From IMG/VR virus record IMGVR_UViG_2778261667_000004, positions 1-7,210 of that record: a stretch of DNA of 7,210 nt; one strand, written 5' to 3'. Positions 1 through 7,210 of this stretch are shown in pieces. The position numbers and the translations under genes are program-made. The notes beneath the pieces were generated by a model. That model saw only the letters and a list, made by a program, of their open reading frames with translations, did not search any database and had not been told where the DNA came from. Origin of the DNA: a virus. Taxonomy: Duplodnaviria; Heunggongvirae; Uroviricota; Caudoviricetes. Position 1 is the stretch's first letter, and each line of letters starts with the position of its first letter.

Positions 1-567
1 TTCTTGCACCGTCTGATAGAGCGTCATCTCTTCAGCATTGTGCCGTATAAAATCTGCTTTCCCGCCTATTTTTCCATCAGCATGAACAGGCACCAACCAG
101 GGGTGCTTGAGGCGAACTTCAATCGGTGCTGCATGTTGATGGTGCCACTTACACAACGGGAGGACGTATTTATGGGCATCTTTAGCCGTTCTGCCAAATA
201 TGTGGTGGAGAGATACGACAGGGCTATACTTCCCGTGAAGATGGCAGGCAATACAGGGGAGTTTGCCTATAGCGTCCTGTATCCGGCGCTCTTCTGCTGT
301 GAGTGATCTCCCTTTTAATCCGCGTGACGTGCGCGTTTTTTTGGGGAGGGCTGACGTCGCTCTCTCTCTTCTGCGCTGTTCACTTTGCCTCGCTTTTTCA
401 AGTTTCTTTTGACGATATTCAGGCGATGCGGCTTTTTCCCTTGCGCGTTGCTGCTGGCGTTGAGCCTGCTGAAGACGTTTTGCCCTTTGCTCTTCCCGCC
501 ATTCCGGATCAGCCAGTTTTTGCATGGCTTTTTGTCTCTGTTTCTCCCAATAACTCTGTCTCTGCAT
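1..567 (-). CDS. Ref-like HNH endonuclease (P1 recombination enhancement function family), 3' end beyond window start; alternative start at 525
   Basis: Reverse-strand frame open from 567 to position 1 with no stop, so not in the ORF track. Translation: MQRQSYWEKQRQKAMQKLADPEWREEQRAKRLQQAQRQQQRAREK...GLKGRSLTAEERRIQDAIGKLPCIACHLHGKYSPVVSLHHIFGRTAKDAHKYVLPLCKWHHQHAAPIEVRLKHPWLVPVHADGKIGGKADF...TVQE. Basic, probably disordered N-terminus followed by a CxxC...HH...CxxHH zinc/HNH-type motif, matching my recollection of P1 Ref. Only weak SD-like AAGAGA upstream of ATG 567. Confidence 0.7.
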   Translation of the reverse strand, partial: MQRQSYWEKQRQKAMQKLADPEWREEQRAKRLQQAQRQQQRAREKAASPEYRQKKLEKARQSEQRRRERATSALPKKTRTSRGLKGRSLTAEERRIQDAIGKLPCIACHLHGKYSPVVSLHHIFGRTAKDAHKYVLPLCKWHHQHAAPIEVRLKHPWLVPVHADGKIGGKADFIRHNAEEMTLYQTVQE

Positions 568-685
568 GTTGGCTGTCTCTTACTTATCAGCGATTTTTTA
601 TAATTGATCATATTTGTTAGTTATTCAAAATTGATTTCTAACATAAAACATTAATATCATCACTGATAACTGTTTGGAGGACATG
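568..685. promoter_or_regulatory. Divergent AT-rich control region between Ref-like gene and rightward operon; inverted repeat TGTTAG(615-620)-N17-CTAACA(638-643); candidate -35 TTGATT (631-636)
   Basis: Non-coding AT-rich stretch between two divergently oriented starts. Inverted repeat and TTGATTT/TCTAACATA words are shared with 4767-4788. The -10 is ambiguous (TAATAT 652-657 at 15 bp spacing, or TATCAT 655-660 at 18 bp). Confidence 0.3.
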
Positions 686-838
686 ATGCTTATAGCTTTA
701 AGTGCGATCCACCAGCCATCTGTGAATGAGATCGGTCTGTTCTATGTGCTGTTTTTCGGGGCGTTGGCGCTACTTGAGCTTGGTATTGAGCTTTTTGCCG
801 TGCTGATGTTTTGCGTCACGATGCTGGGGAAATTTTGA
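686..838 (+). CDS. Small hydrophobic (membrane) protein, about 50 aa, first gene of rightward operon; not in ORF track
   Basis: GGAGG at 676-680, then ATGATG (683/686). Translation: MLIALSAIHQPSVNEIGLFYVLFFGALALLELGIELFAVLMFCVTMLGKF. Stop TGA 836-838 overlaps ATG 838 of the next gene (TGATG). Hydrophobic stretch long enough for 1-2 TM helices. Confidence 0.45.
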   Translation: MLIALSAIHQPSVNEIGLFYVLFFGALALLELGIELFAVLMFCVTMLGKF

Positions 839-1461
839 TGGTGAAACGTGTTTTGAAAATTTACATCGCGGGGCCGATGACTGGTTATCCAGAGTACAAC
901 CGCGCGGCGTTTAATGCGAAAGCGAGCGAGTTGATGGCTGAAGGGCATATCGTTCTGAATCCGGCGGTATTACCTGGTGGCCTTTGTCAGAGTGAATACA
1001 TGGATATTTGCCTGGCAATGGTGCGTTCTGCTGATGCTATCTATCTGCTTAAGGGCTGGGAATCGTCCTCAGGAGCACGAGCAGAACATGACCTGGCTGA
1101 AAAACTGAGGCTTACGGTAATTTATGAATCGCCATCTGACAGAGATTGCAGAATGGCAGCGCATATTTACCGTGAACTGGTCAATGCGTTGTGTGATGTT
1201 GCTATTGAATGTCACGGCACGGATCAGCTTCGCGCTCGCTTAAGCAATACCCTTTCCAGCTACCTGTCTTTAGCTGAAGGATACAACCTCCGGCAGCGGA
1301 GAATGGTCAAATTAATCACGCGTTTATCTCAATCCCTGGCAAATGCCGAACCAACTAATCCGCTACCTAATGACGCAATGAATTATCTGAAGTCATGCGG
1401 CGTTGTTTCTGAAGATGCAGTTCGTTTTGTGGAGTTTATGTCTCAGAGGATGTCGGCGTGA
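838..1461 (+). CDS. DUF4406-family protein (nucleoside 2-deoxyribosyltransferase-like fold) with about 100-aa C-terminal extension of unknown function
   Basis: N-terminal KIYIAGPMTGYPEYNRAAFNAKASELMAEGHIVLNPAVL...AIYLLKGWESSSGARAEHDLA...VIYES matches the DUF4406/NDT-like signature as I recall it. GGGGAA about 7 nt upstream of ATG 838. The track's TTG 811 start would overlap the upstream small ORF, so ATG 838 is preferred. Confidence 0.8.
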   Translation: MVKRVLKIYIAGPMTGYPEYNRAAFNAKASELMAEGHIVLNPAVLPGGLCQSEYMDICLAMVRSADAIYLLKGWESSSGARAEHDLAEKLRLTVIYESPSDRDCRMAAHIYRELVNALCDVAIECHGTDQLRARLSNTLSSYLSLAEGYNLRQRRMVKLITRLSQSLANAEPTNPLPNDAMNYLKSCGVVSEDAVRFVEFMSQRMSA

Positions 1462-1775
1462 GCTGGCGGGGATGGGGAAGGGCAGAAATCATGATACTCC
1501 GCCAGTGCGCCGGGACTATGACGGTCGAGAGTATCGGGAAGCTGATCGGTCGTACCGGTGATGCCGTCAGGACTAAAGCGCGGGAGCTGAGAATCAGCAT
1601 GATTCTGAAAGGTGACTTTCACCAGTCAGCCAAATACCGGCAGAGCGATATAGAGCTGGCGCGGCAGCTTCATCAGTGTGGCGTTCCCCGCCGTGAGATC
1701 GCAGAAAAACTCGAAATGCCCCTGGGCATGATTAATCAGTACGTTTATTTCGAAAGGAGAGTGCATGAAGTCTGA
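1458..1775 (+). CDS. GcrA-like / tandem helix-turn-helix DNA-binding protein
   Basis: GTG start in a GTGA overlap with the upstream stop; AGAGGA 8 nt upstream. MSW...IGKLIGRTGDAVRTKARELRIS resembles the GcrA N-terminal HTH; second HTH-like segment DIELARQLHQCGVPRREIAEKLEMPLGMINQY. Confidence 0.65.
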   Translation: MSWRGWGRAEIMILRQCAGTMTVESIGKLIGRTGDAVRTKARELRISMILKGDFHQSAKYRQSDIELARQLHQCGVPRREIAEKLEMPLGMINQYVYFERRVHEV

Positions 1776-2202
1776 AGGTTTAACGCCAGAGCAACTGGCG
1801 GCGGAGAATGCGGCATTGCGTGAAGTAGTTGAACGCATGATAAATCAATTTGCAATGAGCGGTATTTCTCCAGAAGAGAAGTCAATCAATCCCGCAGCGT
1901 CGCTCATGTTTGATGCTAAATCAGCATTGTCTATGCCTGCAACTGACGCTTTCCTGGCTGAAGTTCGTGCTGAGGCACGCAACGAGGGGATTAACTATAC
2001 CGCAAGCCGTCTTGCTGCTGCTTTTAACCACGGATTTATCAATAAGTCTTTACGTGAAGTTTTCGACGTTACGCGCATGATTCTGTCAGCAAAAGAAGAG
2101 TTGGCTAATGAACCGCACCCGATTGATGGCCTGTCCGGTGAATATGCGGAGAAATCCCTGGAAGAATGGGCAGAACAGATTCGCAAAGGAGGTGATAAGT
2201 GA
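1765..2202 (+). CDS. Ea22-like protein, short paralog carrying only the coiled-coil plus PATDAFLAEVRA module
   Basis: AGGAGA SD then ATG 1765. Contains LAAENAALREVVERM and SMPATDAFLAEVRAEARNEGI, the same modules as in 2618-3322 and 6665-7210. Confidence 0.75.
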   Translation: MKSEGLTPEQLAAENAALREVVERMINQFAMSGISPEEKSINPAASLMFDAKSALSMPATDAFLAEVRAEARNEGINYTASRLAAAFNHGFINKSLREVFDVTRMILSAKEELANEPHPIDGLSGEYAEKSLEEWAEQIRKGGDK

Positions 2203-2609
2203 AGAAGATGATTTTTGTGGCGGCATTGGTGGCCATTACCCAACAGGCACAGGCTTCAGCAGTTATTGTGGCATCTACCGCCGCGACAACGGCTGCTGTA
2301 GCTGCTGCGAACTCTGCGAATATCGCAAACCAACAGGCACAGCGTGCTGCCAATGCATCAGCCGGTGTTCAACCAATTACCATTAAGGCCAGTAAGCAAA
2401 ATCTGGGGTTCATAACGTGCGGCAAGCGTTCTTATGAAGCTGTAGGCTCTCTGGGATGTACGGTATATGGCGATAGTGAGAGTAGAGAAATTCCATGGAA
2501 AACGTGGCCCGGATACGTTCTCGGCTCGAAGCTCCCGGCCAGCTATGAAGTAAACGCCGTATCGTTTGATCACTATAACGGCGTGGCAACTGTCTATTTT
2601 GCATATTGA
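2199..2609 (+). CDS. Secreted/periplasmic protein of unknown function (signal peptide, Ala/Thr/Asn-rich linker, two-Cys C-terminal domain)
   Basis: AGGAGGT SD then GTG 2199 in a GTGA overlap. N-terminus MKKMIFVAALVAITQQAQA|SAV is a textbook Sec signal with AxA cleavage site. Low-complexity linker, then globular C-terminus with Cys-x13-Cys. No lipobox. Confidence 0.7.
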   Translation: MKKMIFVAALVAITQQAQASAVIVASTAATTAAVAAANSANIANQQAQRAANASAGVQPITIKASKQNLGFITCGKRSYEAVGSLGCTVYGDSESREIPWKTWPGYVLGSKLPASYEVNAVSFDHYNGVATVYFAY

Positions 2610-2617
2610 GGCTCCGC

Positions 2618-3322
2618 ATGAAATTCTCCAAATTTTCTGAGTTGGTGAATCGTATTTTGTCCAACAACCACAGCCATCATAGCGATATGGATGTGACGAT
2701 CGTTGTTCATTCGCCTGGCAGCATTGGTTCAACACCCTCAGTTGAGGTTCAGTCAATTCACGCTGGTTTTGATTGGGATTCCGGGAAAGTGCTGATTTTC
2801 CCAGCACAGCCACTGACCACGCTAACACCAGAACAGATTACTGATATTACTGATAGTGTGCGCAAAGGTCAGTCCTGGCACGCATATCAGGAATACAAGA
2901 AGCATAAAGAGCAGTTGGAAAAATTGTCGATTGAACTTGATGCCGCAAAACAGCGCGTTGCAGAGCTGGAGAGCAATCGAGCGGCGCTGGCGGCGGAGAA
3001 TGCAGGGCTAAAGGCGATATGTGATGACCGTCGCAGGCTCATCATGAATGGGGTGCAGATGGGTTATATCAAGGTGCCAACAGCGGAAACAGATCCAGAC
3101 CTTGAGACAATACGTATTGCTATATCACCACAAAAGCCCATTCCAGCCACCGATGCTTTCTTGGCTGAAGTGCGGGCGGAGGCGTTTAACGACCTTTGCG
3201 CGGCGTTTGTCATGGACGCGAGGGGAGTAGGACTGGATGATGACGAGCTAGTGACGCTTAAAGATGCGACAGGTGCGCTGCTGCATTGTGCAGAACAGCT
3301 TAGGGAAGGGGGCAGTCAGTGA
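2618..3322 (+). CDS. Ea22-like protein (Ead/Ea22 family), full-length paralog with distinct N-terminal domain
   Basis: GAGG SD then ATG 2618 (track TTG 2606 would overlap the upstream stop). Coiled-coil NRAALAAENAGLKAICDD and PIPATDAFLAEVRAEAFNDL shared with the other two Ea22-like genes; unique N-terminal domain (DVTIVVHSPGSIGSTPSVEVQSIHAGFDWDSGKVLIFP). Confidence 0.8.
   Translation: MKFSKFSELVNRILSNNHSHHSDMDVTIVVHSPGSIGSTPSVEVQSIHAGFDWDSGKVLIFPAQPLTTLTPEQITDITDSVRKGQSWHAYQEYKKHKEQLEKLSIELDAAKQRVAELESNRAALAAENAGLKAICDDRRRLIMNGVQMGYIKVPTAETDPDLETIRIAISPQKPIPATDAFLAEVRAEAFNDLCAAFVMDARGVGLDDDELVTLKDATGALLHCAEQLREGGSQ
2981..3002 (+). repeat. 22-bp direct repeat (GCGGCGCTGGCGGCGGAGAATG), identical copy at 6968-6989, 16-bp core also at 1797-1815
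   Basis: Exact string match read from the sequence; encodes the AALAAEN coiled-coil segment of the Ea22-like paralogs. Confidence 0.85.
3143..3180 (+). repeat. About 38-bp near-identical direct repeat (PATDAFLAEVRA-coding), partner at 7118-7156, more diverged copy at 1936-1977
   Basis: CCAGCCACCGATGCTTTCTTGGCTGAAGTGCGGGCGGA versus CCAGCCACCGATGCTTTTCTGGCTGAAGTACGGGCGCA; a handful of mismatches by eye. Confidence 0.8.
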
Positions 3323-3618
3323 ATATCGACACCACGATAACGATCGACACGGCTCTCAACACAGGTTTGGCCTTGCTCGGTTGGGTTTACATCATGTTCA
3401 GTGCAGTACGGTGGGTGAAATCTGTTTTTCTAAAGCAGTGGGATAAACTCCGCGAAAAATCACGCCGCCAACAGGCCGTAGATGAATTTTGCGATGCATT
3501 TTCTTTGGAATGCATGGAGCCAGGTAGCACCATCCGCATCGCAACGAAGGAGGACTTGATAATTATGATGTATCGACAGGAGAAGGCAAATGACAGAACA
3601 GACGATGACAAATCGTGA
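3319..3618 (+). CDS. Small single-pass membrane protein, unknown function
   Basis: GTG start inside the junction GGGGGCAGTCAGTGA (3308-3322), overlapping the upstream stop. One predicted TM segment (TALNTGLALLGWVYIMFSAV). Confidence 0.5.
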   Translation: MNIDTTITIDTALNTGLALLGWVYIMFSAVRWVKSVFLKQWDKLREKSRRQQAVDEFCDAFSLECMEPGSTIRIATKEDLIIMMYRQEKANDRTDDDKS

Positions 3619-3814
3619 ACTTGTTGATGCCGCGATTGAACTTGCTGGCGATTTTTATTCCATGATGGGTTACGAGCATCGACCTGGTTTTAAGTATTGG
3701 GAGTCACCGCATCCGCAAGAACGACAGGTGTTTGAAATGGCCTGCCGTGCTTTTGAGGTTATTCGCGGCTCTGATGTGATGGATGCCGTTGCCGACTTGG
3801 AGGATGAAGAGTGA
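3590..3814 (+). CDS. Small acidic protein, unknown function (74 aa)
   Basis: AGGAGAAGG SD immediately upstream of ATG 3590; 29-nt overlap with the upstream gene; acidic composition with DLEDEE tail. Confidence 0.55.
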   Translation: MTEQTMTNRELVDAAIELAGDFYSMMGYEHRPGFKYWESPHPQERQVFEMACRAFEVIRGSDVMDAVADLEDEE

Positions 3815-4041
3815 GCATCATTAAAGAAATGCCGGTAGAACGTGATGAATATGGCTGCTGGACACATCCTGAATATGAAAAATTCTGTGATGGTAGAGAA
3901 CTTATTTCAACGGAAGAGTTTGACACCTGGATGAAGGAAAAGAATCTTCAGTGGACTATTCGCAGTATGGATGAAGATGATTTTAATCTGGGCGCAGATG
4001 GTCCGGTTTGTATCTGGCTGCGGGAGAAGGTTGCCGCATGA
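3811..4041 (+). CDS. Small acidic protein, unknown function (76 aa)
   Basis: GTG 3811 in a GTGA overlap with the upstream stop; its stop overlaps the phosphatase ATG (ATGA at 4038-4041). Two Cys pairs (GCW...FCDG; GPVCIW). Confidence 0.55.
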
Positions 4042-4730
4042 CCCAGGCGCTGCATGAAGTGAATTTATATAGCCGTATTGATGGTTCAGGCTACAGAAAC
4101 ATATGGGTTGTTGGTGATTTGCACGGTTGCTACACCCTGCTTATGAATAAACTCCATCGTGTGGATTTTGACCCGACACAGGATTTACTGATATCGGTTG
4201 GCGACCTTATCGATCGCGGCACAGAAAATGTTGAATGCCTGGAGCTATTGCAGATGCCCTGGTTTCGGTCGGTTATGGGAAACCACGAGCGATTAATGAT
4301 CGATGCGTTAAGTCCCTCTGGCAACGTGAATAACTGGCTAATGAATGGCGGTCAGTGGTTCTTTATGCTGGATAGTGATAAGGAAGTTTTAGCCGGGGCG
4401 CTGGTGGAGCTGGTTAGACGACTGCCTTATATCATAGAGCTGAACACAGGGCAGGAGACTATTGTCATTGCTCATGCTGACTATCCGGATAGAGAGTATC
4501 AGTTTGGCAAGGATGTGTCGCTTTTCAATGTCATCTGGTCGCGAGACCGTGTTAGTGACTCGATAGATGGCATCGGTGAAGAAATCACAGGCGCAGATCG
4601 CTTTATCTTTGGACACACACCGGTACGAAGACCAAAAGCATTCTGGAATCAGCACTACATAGACACAGGCGCGGTTTTTTGCGGAAATCTGACGCTAATA
4701 CAGGTGAAGGGAGGGCAGCTTAAAGTCTGA
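4038..4730 (+). CDS. PPP-family Ser/Thr protein phosphatase, PrpA/PrpB / lambda-phosphatase (ApaH-related) type
   Basis: Canonical metallophosphoesterase motifs in order: GDLHGC (GDxHG), GDLIDRG (GDxxDRG), GNHE, plus later His residues. Length and layout resemble E. coli PrpA as I recall it. GGAGAAGG SD before ATG 4038; track TTG 4008 rejected. Confidence 0.92.
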
Positions 4731-4756
4731 TCAAACCATTTATGCACTCAAAAATT

Positions 4757-4795
4757 CGTTAGAACATTGATTTTAGTTTTCTAACATATTATTTT
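4757..4795 (+). promoter_or_regulatory. Candidate sigma70 promoter (TTGATT 4767-4772, N17, TATTTT 4790-4795) overlapped by inverted repeat GTTAGAA(4758-4764)-N14-TTCTAAC(4779-4785)
   Basis: 98-bp AT-rich intergenic gap after the phosphatase stop. Hexamers match consensus 4/6 and 4/6 at 17-bp spacing. Perfect 7-bp inverted repeat spans the -35 and spacer. Confidence 0.35.
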
Positions 4796-4828
4796 ACCGA
4801 TCGGAACAAAACAGAGTCGGTATGCATT

Positions 4829-5824
4829 ATGAGTGCAATAATCACCCCATATGTCGTAAATGAAACTGGTGTGGCTGTCTTTCCTGTAGATAAGCCCACC
4901 AGCAATTACATCGGCGCAGGACGCCGTTTCATTATCTCTCCACTTCCGCGTGAACAGGCGGAAAACACGCCAGATGGCGTAGTGGATCTGAATTATTCGC
5001 TGGTTGCCAACCAGTCTCTGAAACCATTTTTTCAAAGCGAGCGCGTATTTAACGCATTAGGCGGTGAAGATTCGCTTGTTCATTGGGTAAGTTCCAATAT
5101 CCACGATTGCCAGGCGCACGATAAGCGCGATTGCAGCCACCAGCTAACCACCCATTTCTATAACGGTTCTGCCGTTCGTCTGTGCTGGAAGCATGATGCG
5201 GAATACATGATGAAGGGATACGACAAGCTGGAAGACCAACTGTCACTGAATCGCGCCAACTGGATTATGAACTGGGCTGCCAGCGAGTTAAAACTTCCGC
5301 CAGATCGCGATCTGAGCATGGTTGAACTCACCTTTTGGGCCATTCGCCGGAATCTTAAAGACGAACTGCCTGATGAAGCTGGTCGCATTGCATTTTGTCA
5401 GCCAAAAACTGAAATCCCTACCGGCACCCTGAAAGAGTCGGATATTACCTGGGAGCATAGTACCCGCGAGCTGGTGGATATTTCCGCAGAGCAGATCGTC
5501 AATCTGTCCGTCGATGAAGATTCTGGCCTCCTATATATGCGCCGTCCAAAAACCTTACTCGGAAAAAGCCAGGCTTATCTCCGGTTTGTGGTGTCTCGCC
5601 CATGTGTAGGCTGCGGCGGCAAGGTTAATCACCCGTTCATGTACCGTGCCCGCTCATTAAACGAACACGACCGCTGGGCTGTTCCTCTTTGCGATGACTG
5701 CGCCAGAAGCGCAGAAAACGATGTCCGGGCATGGGAAAAAGCACATGGAATACGCCTTTACGTAGCAGCTAACCAGCTTTTCGACTTCGCCATCGAGCGC
5801 GGAGTGATCACGTTCAATAACTGA
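4829..5824 (+). CDS. DUF968-like prophage protein with C-terminal Cys-rich (CxxC...NEH...CxxC) Ref/HNH-like zinc motif
   Basis: 331-aa ORF after the promoter-like region. C-terminus RPCVGCGGKVNHPFMYRARSLNEHDRWAVPLCDDCARS parallels the PCIAC...HH...PLC motif of the Ref-like gene. Overall resemblance to enterobacterial prophage DUF968 proteins is from memory. Weak SD. Confidence 0.7.
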   Translation: MSAIITPYVVNETGVAVFPVDKPTSNYIGAGRRFIISPLPREQAENTPDGVVDLNYSLVANQSLKPFFQSERVFNALGGEDSLVHWVSSNIHDCQAHDKRDCSHQLTTHFYNGSAVRLCWKHDAEYMMKGYDKLEDQLSLNRANWIMNWAASELKLPPDRDLSMVELTFWAIRRNLKDELPDEAGRIAFCQPKTEIPTGTLKESDITWEHSTRELVDISAEQIVNLSVDEDSGLLYMRRPKTLLGKSQAYLRFVVSRPCVGCGGKVNHPFMYRARSLNEHDRWAVPLCDDCARSAENDVRAWEKAHGIRLYVAANQLFDFAIERGVITFNN

Positions 5825-5840
5825 TGGAGTGGATCAAAAA

Positions 5841-6419
5841 ATGAAAGAACGCGGGATGATTTTTAACGATGAAATGGTCCGGGCAATTCTTGGCGGGAAT
5901 AAAACACAGACTCGCAGGATTGTTGAAGAAAAATTCTATGGACGGGCAGTGGCCGCAGAGTTGCTTGCCAAGCATTGTCCATATGGTCAACCGGGCGATC
6001 GTATTTGGGTTCGCGAAACCTACCGGGTACATGGCAAAGCGACGGACGTCGCAACGCTGGTTTATCGCGCAAGCGTGCGTAACTCCTGGACAGAACAAAC
6101 GCACCGGGTTCCGGTCGAGGTTTGTAATAAACCAGTATCAGAAAAGTGGACGCCATCAATTCACATGCCGCGCTGGGCATCGCGCATTTTGCTGGAAATT
6201 ACCGACGTGCGTGTGGAACGGCTGCATGACATGAGCGAGGCAGATGCTAAAGCAGAAGGCGCAACTCCGGCGACGTACAAGATTACGCCACCTGAAGCTG
6301 TTTATCGCGTTGGTTTTGGTGATATCTGGCGCAGTATTTACGGGCAGGATAACTGGCTATCTAACCCGTTGGTATGGGTAATAGAGTTTAAGCGTATTCA
6401 GGGGGCAACCAGTGAGTGA
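5841..6419 (+). CDS. ASCH-domain (PUA-like fold) protein
   Basis: MIFNDEMVRAILGGNKTQTRR matches the ASCH signature (compare E. coli YqfB DDILAGRKTITIR), followed by GDRIWVRETYRV and C-terminal VWVIEFKRI (YqfB ends FYVIEFK). Start ambiguous: GTG 5829, ATG 5841 or ATG 5856. Confidence 0.75.
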   Translation: MKERGMIFNDEMVRAILGGNKTQTRRIVEEKFYGRAVAAELLAKHCPYGQPGDRIWVRETYRVHGKATDVATLVYRASVRNSWTEQTHRVPVEVCNKPVSEKWTPSIHMPRWASRILLEITDVRVERLHDMSEADAKAEGATPATYKITPPEAVYRVGFGDIWRSIYGQDNWLSNPLVWVIEFKRIQGATSE

Positions 6420-6678
6420 GTCAAAATGCCAAATTAATGGCAACAAGATAGAACCGTGCGCGGCGTTGACGCAATCCCTGGAGCATGACGCTGAATACAC
6501 GACGCGAAAAGGTCTGCTGAAATACAAAATCTATAACCATGCATTAATTCATTCACAAGACCTGATCATGCTGCGGTCTGGTGAATTTTCTAAATCACCG
6601 ATTCGAGTTTCATTTTGCCCGTTCTGTGGTGAAAGTCTGAAAACGTGGGAAGCGGAGGCAACCAGTGAGCAAAATTAA
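6412..6678 (+). CDS. Small Cys-containing protein (possible zinc ribbon), unknown function
   Basis: GTG 6412 inside junction GGGGGCAACCAGTGAGTGA, overlapping the ASCH stop. Cys-x9-Cys near N-terminus and CPFC near C-terminus. Confidence 0.5.
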   Translation: MSESKCQINGNKIEPCAALTQSLEHDAEYTTRKGLLKYKIYNHALIHSQDLIMLRSGEFSKSPIRVSFCPFCGESLKTWEAEATSEQN

Positions 6679-7210
6679 CTATCAAGAACTGCGCGAGGCG
6701 GCGGAACAGGCAACGCAAGATGAATGGGTAGCATATATTTTGCCGGGTCATAACGGCATTTATCCTGCGCGCACGTCTGAGGGTAGGCATTGCGGATACT
6801 TTATTGACTGGCCTGGCATTGATGGACAAAGGAATGCTGGTGCTAATGCCCGTTATATCGCGGCTATCCCACCAAAAGTTGCGCTGGCACTCCTGGGCGA
6901 AATTAAGCGCTTGGAAGACACAAATATTGATGCTATGTGCCGAATTGCAGAACTGGAGGCCTGTCGCGCGGCGCTGGCGGCGGAGAATGAGCTGGCTCGT
7001 AAAGCAGTTCAGGCATTCTGCGATGTTGTTGGCGACAACACCGAGGTTATCGCTGAGGAGATTGGGAGAGATGGTGTTCTGGCTATTTTGGAGGCCATGA
7101 AGGCAACAGGAAATATGCCAGCCACCGATGCTTTTCTGGCTGAAGTACGGGCGCAGGGGGTGGATGCTGCTATAGAAGCTGCAAAAAATCTGGTGGTCCA
7201 AGAATATGAG
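6665..7210 (+). CDS. Ea22-like protein (Ead/Ea22 family), N-terminal part; continues beyond window end
   Basis: Open frame from GTG 6665 to the window end with no stop (absent from ORF track). GGAGG 8 nt upstream. Translation VSKINYQELREAAEQATQDEWVAYILPGHNGIYPARTSEGRHCGYFIDWPG...ACRAALAAENELARKAVQAFCD...NMPATDAFLAEVRAQGVDAAIEAAKN is typical of the family as I recall it. Confidence 0.8.
   Translation, partial: MSKINYQELREAAEQATQDEWVAYILPGHNGIYPARTSEGRHCGYFIDWPGIDGQRNAGANARYIAAIPPKVALALLGEIKRLEDTNIDAMCRIAELEACRAALAAENELARKAVQAFCDVVGDNTEVIAEEIGRDGVLAILEAMKATGNMPATDAFLAEVRAQGVDAAIEAAKNLVVQEYE
6968..6989 (+). repeat. 22-bp direct repeat, partner of 2981-3002
   Basis: Exact string match read from the sequence. 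Confidence 0.85.
7118..7156 (+). repeat. Near-identical direct repeat, partner of 3143-3180
   Basis: See partner entry. Confidence 0.8.

Follow-up and report, generated by a model that had tools for sequence, protein, structure and literature searches.

Organization of the locus

The window analyzed here is the whole stretch of 7,210 nt covering positions 1 to 7,210 of a Caudoviricetes record (IMGVR_UViG_2778261667_000004), and its features are listed in Table 1. Between positions 674 and 4730, ten ORFs follow one another on the plus strand with successive start/stop overlaps of 1–29 nt. The gene under study, ppp, is the tenth, and the nine ORFs before it are probably co-transcribed and translationally coupled with it. 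At the left end of the window lies a ref-like gene. We considered a frameshift in this gene and rejected it, as the ORF is intact from the ATG at 567 to the contig end. The minus-strand ORF listed at 315–611 is out of frame with the ref-like gene and is an artefact. Searching the window against Rfam found no RNA family.

Table 1. Coordinates of the features of the window
Feature	Position	Strand	Description and basis
Ref-like RecA-dependent nuclease	1–567	−	Pfam RecA_dep_nuc, E 3e-35; diverges from the operon, truncated at the contig end
Operon head	613–660	+	Promoter-like TTGATT (631–636), 18-nt spacer, TATCAT (655–660); promoter scan
Operator-like TTTCTAACATA	635–645	+	Overlaps the operon-head promoter; weak inverted half-site at 613–623
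Nine ORFs before ppp	674–4041	+	Small TM, DUF4406, HTH-like, ead/Ea22-like, signal-peptide, second ead/Ea22-like, DUF4752 and two small ORFs; ORF coordinates, Pfam/PHROG matches, order as in D6 and CP056796
DUF4406 protein	838–1461	+	Second gene of the operon
ead/Ea22-like ORFs	1765–2202, 2606–3322, 6671–7210		Three paralogues
136-aa ORF	2199–2609	+	Sec-type signal peptide (MKKMIFVAALVAITQQAQA); PHROG 8805
ORF preceding ppp	3811–4041	+	Stop overlaps the ppp start (ATGA)
Shine-Dalgarno-like GGGAGAAGG	4021–4029	+	8 nt upstream of the ppp ATG; direct sequence reading
ppp	4038–4730	+	230-aa lambda-phosphatase-type (NinI/Ppp) binuclear metallophosphoesterase; catalytic residues D27, H29, D56, D59, R60, N82, H83, H146, R169, H193, D209
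Gap after ppp	4731–4828		98 bp, first non-coding gap after 674
Conserved gap element	4755–4795	+	Weak inverted half-site at 4755–4765; operator-like TTTCTAACATA at 4778–4788
Gap promoter-like pair	4767–4795	+	TTGATT 4767–4772, 17 nt, −10-like TATTTT 4790–4795
DUF968/HNH-like gene (similar to P1 pdcB)	4829–5824	+	Pfam DUF968, E 5e-45; PHROG 96
196-aa ORF	5829–6419	+	PHROG 874; no Pfam match

The DUF4406 protein matches nucleoside 2-deoxyribosyltransferase-like profiles (PHROG 355) with its first 100 residues, after which comes a C-terminal extension of about 100 aa. The 136-aa ORF is predicted to encode a secreted or periplasmic protein within an operon that appears to be early and repressor-controlled, and it is absent from D6. 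The three ead/Ea22-like paralogues, all within 7.2 kb, have the motif PATDAFLAEVRA in common. The last one runs past the right edge of the window, which ends inside this repeated gene family; the window is an entire contig of the draft Escherichia sp. MOD1-EC6153 assembly, which may have broken there. Parts of the region 1933–3814 are matched at 93–94% identity in other phages, lambdoid ones among them (phiV10, O157 typing phages), which points to mosaic exchange with phages of non-P1 type. Downstream of the DUF968 gene, the 196-aa ORF forms a variable cassette that is missing from D6. This stretch (5829–6419) has about 90% DNA identity to P7 near upf86.8, a gene named "DNA primase" in one record.

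Relationship to D6-like phage-plasmids

On DNA identity and gene order, the window is a segment of a D6-like, P1-family phage-plasmid of Escherichia. Phage D6 was the closest relative at the DNA level (87% over 63% of the window, with 84–91% in the backbone), and non-mobilizable plasmids of about 90 kb from E. coli and Salmonella matched 82–89% of the window at about 90% identity. The gene order corresponds to D6 orf87–orf99 and is also that of plasmid CP056796. In this D6-type order, a minus-strand Ref-like gene is followed on the plus strand by a small ORF, DUF4406, HTH-like, ead/Ea22-like, DUF4752, two small ORFs, ppp and DUF968. Two cassettes of the window, at 1800–3316 and 5828–6432, differ from D6, while ppp and the DUF968 gene stand in the conserved backbone.

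Start codon and catalytic residues of Ppp

The ppp ORF starts with an ATG at 4038 and its TGA stop ends at 4730, giving 230 aa. In the program-made list of ORFs, the same frame opens further upstream, at a TTG at 4008. The ATG at 4038 is supported as the start by the Shine-Dalgarno-like sequence, by the ATGA in which the start codon overlaps the stop of the ORF before it, and by the homologues annotated in D6, P1 and plasmids, which are likewise 230 aa long. The coordinates of the initial annotation, 4038–4730, were thus borne out.

The same annotation had described three intact PPP motifs, and we examined these in an ungapped alignment to the lambda phosphatase (lambda-PP) structure 1G5B. Motif I reads G26-D27-L28-H29-G30 (GDXHG), whose D27 and H29 pair with lambda D20 and H22. 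Motif II reads G55-D56-L-I-D59-R60-G61 (GDXXDRG), with both the second Asp and the Arg present, and pairs with lambda D49 and R53; motif III reads G81-N82-H83-E84 (GNHE) and pairs with lambda N75 and H76. H146 and H193, the distal ligands, and R169, which binds phosphate, are present as well. Overall, the nine lambda residues D20, H22, D49, R53, N75, H76, H139, R162 and H186 correspond to D27, H29, D56, R60, N82, H83, H146, R169 and H193 of Ppp, and all nine are identical. In addition, D209 (lambda D202) is invariant in an alignment of six sequences. The alignment therefore confirms an intact catalytic center, and accurate alignment showed no metal-ligand substitution in Ppp.

Family placement of Ppp

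Well above chance, Ppp matches the Pfam Metallophos model with 59 bits (cut-off 21.5) and PHROG 246, "NinI-like serine-threonine phosphatase", with an E value of 8e-110. Residues 10–226 align ungapped with residues 3–219 of 1G5B (215 residues, 67% identity, E 5e-96), and with such identity to a crystal structure the fold of Ppp is already settled. Identity to the window protein was 89% for D6 orf97, 80% for P1 Ppp, 66–67% for lambda-PP, 50% for E. coli PrpA (pphA) and 46% for E. coli PrpB (pphB). A PPP-family phosphatase related to lambda phosphatase, as initially proposed, is what we find, and the relationship is close.

Against the PrpA and PrpB equivalog models (NCBIfam NF008516 and NF007425), Ppp scored 282 bits for a cut-off of 326 and 242 bits for a cut-off of 332. 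As both scores fall below their cut-offs, Ppp is a phage-type member of the lambda/PrpA/PrpB group and an orthologue of neither host enzyme. Andreeva and Kutuzov place lambda-PP, PrpA and PrpB together in "Group III" of the bacterial PPP phosphatases (PMC535813), and by alignment the window Ppp belongs in this group. Of the earlier label "PrpA/ApaH-like", the first half holds as a more distant kinship to PrpA and PrpB, whereas the second half does not hold, for reasons of score, alignment length and signature residues that are given in the Discussion. The initial annotation had also stated that the substrate cannot be read from the sequence, and we agree.

The intergenic region downstream of ppp

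Among the window, D6 and the plasmid, conservation is higher in the 98-bp gap that follows ppp than in the coding DNA of ppp, which is 88–92% identical to the D6 and CP056796 copies. In columns 4758–4800, the window is identical to D6 and CP056796 has one substitution. This part of the gap contains an operator-like site and a promoter-like pair (Table 1). The −35/−10 pair scores 8/12, which is below the threshold of the promoter scan. No intrinsic terminator was predicted in 4731–4828, and the gap does not stand out in its RNA fold (z-score −1.4).

The operator-like sites in the gap and at the operon head both correspond to TTTCTAACAYA. In the D6 genome, we found 10 exact copies of this motif where 0.06 were expected under a first-order Markov model, and 13 of 14 near-matches in D6 are intergenic. 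The D6 sites (record positions are, for example, 197, 10323, 21268, 22465, 64114/64137, 75978, 76638, 80730 and 89946) include some ahead of c1, cre, ref and repL and beside pmgR and pmgS, and the motif is often preceded by AAATTA. In P1, C1 operators lie at similar places, and the P1 unit with ppp has the C1 operator "Oppp" (Op83) in front of it. The P1 consensus itself, ATTGCTCTAATAAATTT, is distinct from the motif of the window and D6, and a search of the window with up to 3 mismatches found no match to it. We propose TTTCTAACAYA as a candidate operator to which the D6-type C1 prophage repressor would bind. The element at 4755–4795 probably serves the genes that follow as a promoter under repressor control.

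From this arrangement we infer that ppp is the last gene of a repressor-controlled early unit and that the DUF968 gene has its own repressor-controlled promoter. The DUF968 protein, 96% identical to D6 orf98, opens the block after ppp. The view of ppp as the terminal gene of the operon, taken in the initial annotation, agrees with its being the tenth of ten overlapping ORFs before a conserved gap with operator- and promoter-like sites; the missing terminator speaks against it. Since no terminator was predicted and genes continue on the same strand, read-through from ppp is likely, and "last gene of the operon" may be nominal only.

Conservation and distribution of ppp

Compared with the D6 and CP056796 alleles, ppp has a dN/dS of 0.11–0.14, and from these values the gene is evidently under purifying selection. 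A protein identical to the window Ppp is already present in RefSeq as a "metallophosphoesterase" of Escherichia sp. MOD1-EC6153 (WP_105283356.1). Its cluster at 90% identity has 245 members from E. coli, Salmonella and E. albertii, and the length of 230 aa is conserved. More broadly, Ppp homologues occur in 1,403 of 50,697 phage records. Among complete E. coli genomes, 645 of 5,426 carry sequence related to ppp, at 652 places on plasmids and 18 on chromosomes. The window Ppp is an allelic variant of the textbook family formed by lambda-PP, P1 Ppp and D6 orf97. Nothing in its sequence, context or conservation was unexpected.

Discussion

We interpret ppp as the D6-lineage orthologue of P1 ppp and lambda ninI, that is, as a gene for a lambda-PP-type enzyme, under repressor control, with an accessory role. 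Taken together, we consider this reading about 85% probable. By similarity to lambda-PP, Ppp would be a small single-domain, Mn2+-requiring enzyme with two metal ions in its active site. One Mn2+ would be held by D27, H29 and D56 and the other by D56, N82, H146 and H193. A metal-bridging hydroxide would be the nucleophile that attacks phosphorus, R60 and R169 would bind the phosphate oxygens, and H83, oriented by D59, would act as the general acid that protonates the leaving group. We have high confidence that the chemistry of lambda-PP can be transferred to the window Ppp by this analogy. The expected activities are then those of lambda-PP, namely a broad phosphomonoesterase activity on phosphoproteins and phosphopeptides and a phosphodiesterase activity on 2',3'-cyclic nucleotides. 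Lambda-PP cleaves phosphoproteins, phosphopeptides, pNPP, bis-pNPP and 2',3'-cNMPs but not nucleoside monophosphates, and its physiological substrates are explicitly described as unknown (PMC2190708).

As the last gene of a translationally coupled ten-ORF unit whose promoter appears to overlap a C1-operator-like motif, ppp should stay silent as long as the prophage is maintained as a plasmid and come on early upon infection or induction. What the enzyme would do at that stage is the least certain step: most likely, it would strip phosphates off host phosphoproteins early in lytic development. The gene would be an accessory one, dispensable for growth on laboratory hosts. CRISPRi screens showed that P1 ppp and lambda ninI are both dispensable for plaque formation (PMC10695390). 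Within the host, E. coli PrpA is known to modulate CpxAR/htrA signalling (PMC6610125).

Two other readings can be set against features of the protein itself. An ApaH-like enzyme, which would hydrolyze dinucleoside polyphosphates or decap Np4N-capped RNA, has the PPP fold and the N-terminal motifs I–III in common with Ppp; ApaH chains are found with E values of 3e-11 to 4e-08, and B. subtilis PrpE, named as a bis(5'-nucleosyl)-tetraphosphatase, gives a full-length match, although a weak one (43 bits for a cut-off of 340). However, the ApaH models score Ppp at 68.3 bits for a cut-off of 176 and at 53 bits for a cut-off of 222.85, and ApaH chains align over about 70 residues only, from about residue 20 to residue 92. 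A neutral residue replacing the second Asp of GDxxDRG is the signature of ApaH (PMC535813). In Ppp this Asp is retained as D59, so that the ApaH/Alph signature is absent, and its GDLIDRG and GNHE are those of protein phosphatases, whereas the ApaH chains have GDLVNRG or GDLVNKG and GNHD. The placement in Group III also counts against ApaH. Sub-cut-off scores, partial alignment and the retained second Asp and GNHE thus remove the ApaH-like label, and we regard this function as highly improbable. The chance that ppp is a decaying or inactive passenger gene without function is smaller still and close to nil. The copies of the gene in P1 and lambda are non-essential, as a passenger would be, but every catalytic residue of Ppp is intact, dN/dS stays at 0.11–0.14, the 230-aa length is kept across the 245-member cluster, and the start of the gene combines a strong Shine-Dalgarno sequence with start/stop coupling. 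The intact residues together with the purifying selection exclude an inactive remnant.

The remaining readings concern the substrate and the benefit to the phage. If the real substrates were nucleic-acid or nucleotide phosphodiesters, Ppp would heal RNA ends or clear signals. H83 and R60, which are tied to phosphodiesterase activity, are kept in Ppp, and the protein has weak similarity to a PHROG "RNA ligase" profile and, over its full length, to the phosphatase module of Pnkp; the model of bacterial Pnkp, an RNA repair enzyme with kinase, phosphatase and ligase modules, gives 38 bits for a cut-off of 750, and residues 24–221 of Ppp cover the phosphatase module only. P1 and P7 also encode a 3'-phosphatase-like protein in a gene of its own, pap, at a distance of 2.3 kb. 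In contrast, the window has no kinase or ligase partner, and D6 has no Pap homologue, hence the pairing of Ppp with Pap is not conserved in the D6 lineage. Moreover, lambda-PP cannot take off the resulting 2' or 3' monophosphate, its Km values, measured on two non-nucleotide substrates (pNPP and bis-pNPP), lie in the mM range, and its cyclic-nucleotide assays used 10 mM substrate (PMC2190708). We consider such a function improbable. Two-step RNA end healing by Ppp and Pap as a conserved module was rejected, since D6 and the window both have no Pap homologue. We take an equally reserved view of Ppp as a dedicated counter-defence enzyme that would act early to dephosphorylate abortive-infection kinases or the host proteins they modify. 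The accessory operon that contains ppp is the first one and appears to be under repressor control, and its ead/Ea22-like and DUF genes are typical of variable early regions, which speaks for this reading. So does the wide spread of a non-essential family through unrelated phages (1,403 of 50,697 records), which would suit an accessory role or one in host range. Evasion of immunity has been linked to another phage metallophosphoesterase, gp48 of a mycobacteriophage, though via DNA damage (PMC12287305). Against this stand the absence of any neighbor or partner conserved across the lambda, P1 and D6 contexts and the non-specificity of lambda-PP in vitro. In addition, the literature that we searched for an in vivo or anti-defence role contained nothing specific, and no experimental link to counter-defence, for NinI/Ppp-type phosphatases, and PADLOC defence-system models gave no match to ppp or to four further window ORFs, among them the adjacent DUF968 gene. 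The signalling or anti-defence role suggested in the initial annotation thus finds no backing in the sequence, its context, PADLOC or the papers searched, and is speculative.

A more general proposal can be formulated for the whole Ppp/NinI family, which might be an early counter-defence tool that either erases the marks of abortive-infection kinases or clears the 2',3'-cyclic-phosphate nucleotides and RNA ends left by defence ribonucleases. We find this doubtful. If it were true, it would account for the purifying selection on a non-essential enzyme across about 1,400 unrelated phage genomes and for the position of ppp in the operon that is derepressed first in P1/D6-type phage-plasmids. The benefit of lambda-PP or Ppp to the phage is a question that is decades old, and lambda, P1 and D6 are better suited to it than the window. 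In practice, the candidate D6-type C1 operator motif may be of more value than ppp, as it would locate the units under repressor control in D6-like plasmid prophages, a group common in E. coli and Salmonella.

Comparison with known systems

Lambda-PP (NinI, orf221; 1G5B) is among the best-characterized phosphatases and is sold as a laboratory reagent. It has the fold and length class of the window Ppp, and its metal-ligand and phosphate-binding residues are identical; like ninI, ppp is probably an early, non-essential accessory gene of a temperate phage. The window Ppp differs from it by an N-terminus that is 7 residues longer and by its C-terminal tail. The genes also differ in location, as ninI lies in the nin region between ninH and Q, whereas ppp stands at the end of a plasmid-prophage operon that appears to be controlled by a C1-type repressor. 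E. coli PrpA and PrpB have the PPP subgroup and the catalytic residues in common with Ppp, but they are chromosomal genes tied to envelope-stress signalling, while ppp is a phage gene. ApaH, with GDxxNRG, GNHD and a distinct C-terminal half, has only the PPP motifs I–III in common with Ppp.

Closer relatives are found among the P1-like phage-plasmids. The Ppp of P1 and P7, from the same phage family, is also 230 aa long and is encoded in a repressor-controlled early unit, as the window Ppp appears to be. There, however, pmgN-P lie upstream and pmgQ/hdmD follow directly downstream with a 4-nt overlap, whereas in the window and in D6 the genes upstream are of the lambdoid ead/DUF4752 type, and downstream come a gap with an operator-like site and then the DUF968 gene. 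D6 orf97 and its counterparts from D6-like prophages that occur as plasmids in E. coli and Salmonella are the nearest of all, with 89–92% identical proteins and the same neighbors on both sides. From these relatives, the window differs only by allelic divergence and by its other variable cassettes, at 1800–3316 and 5828–6432.
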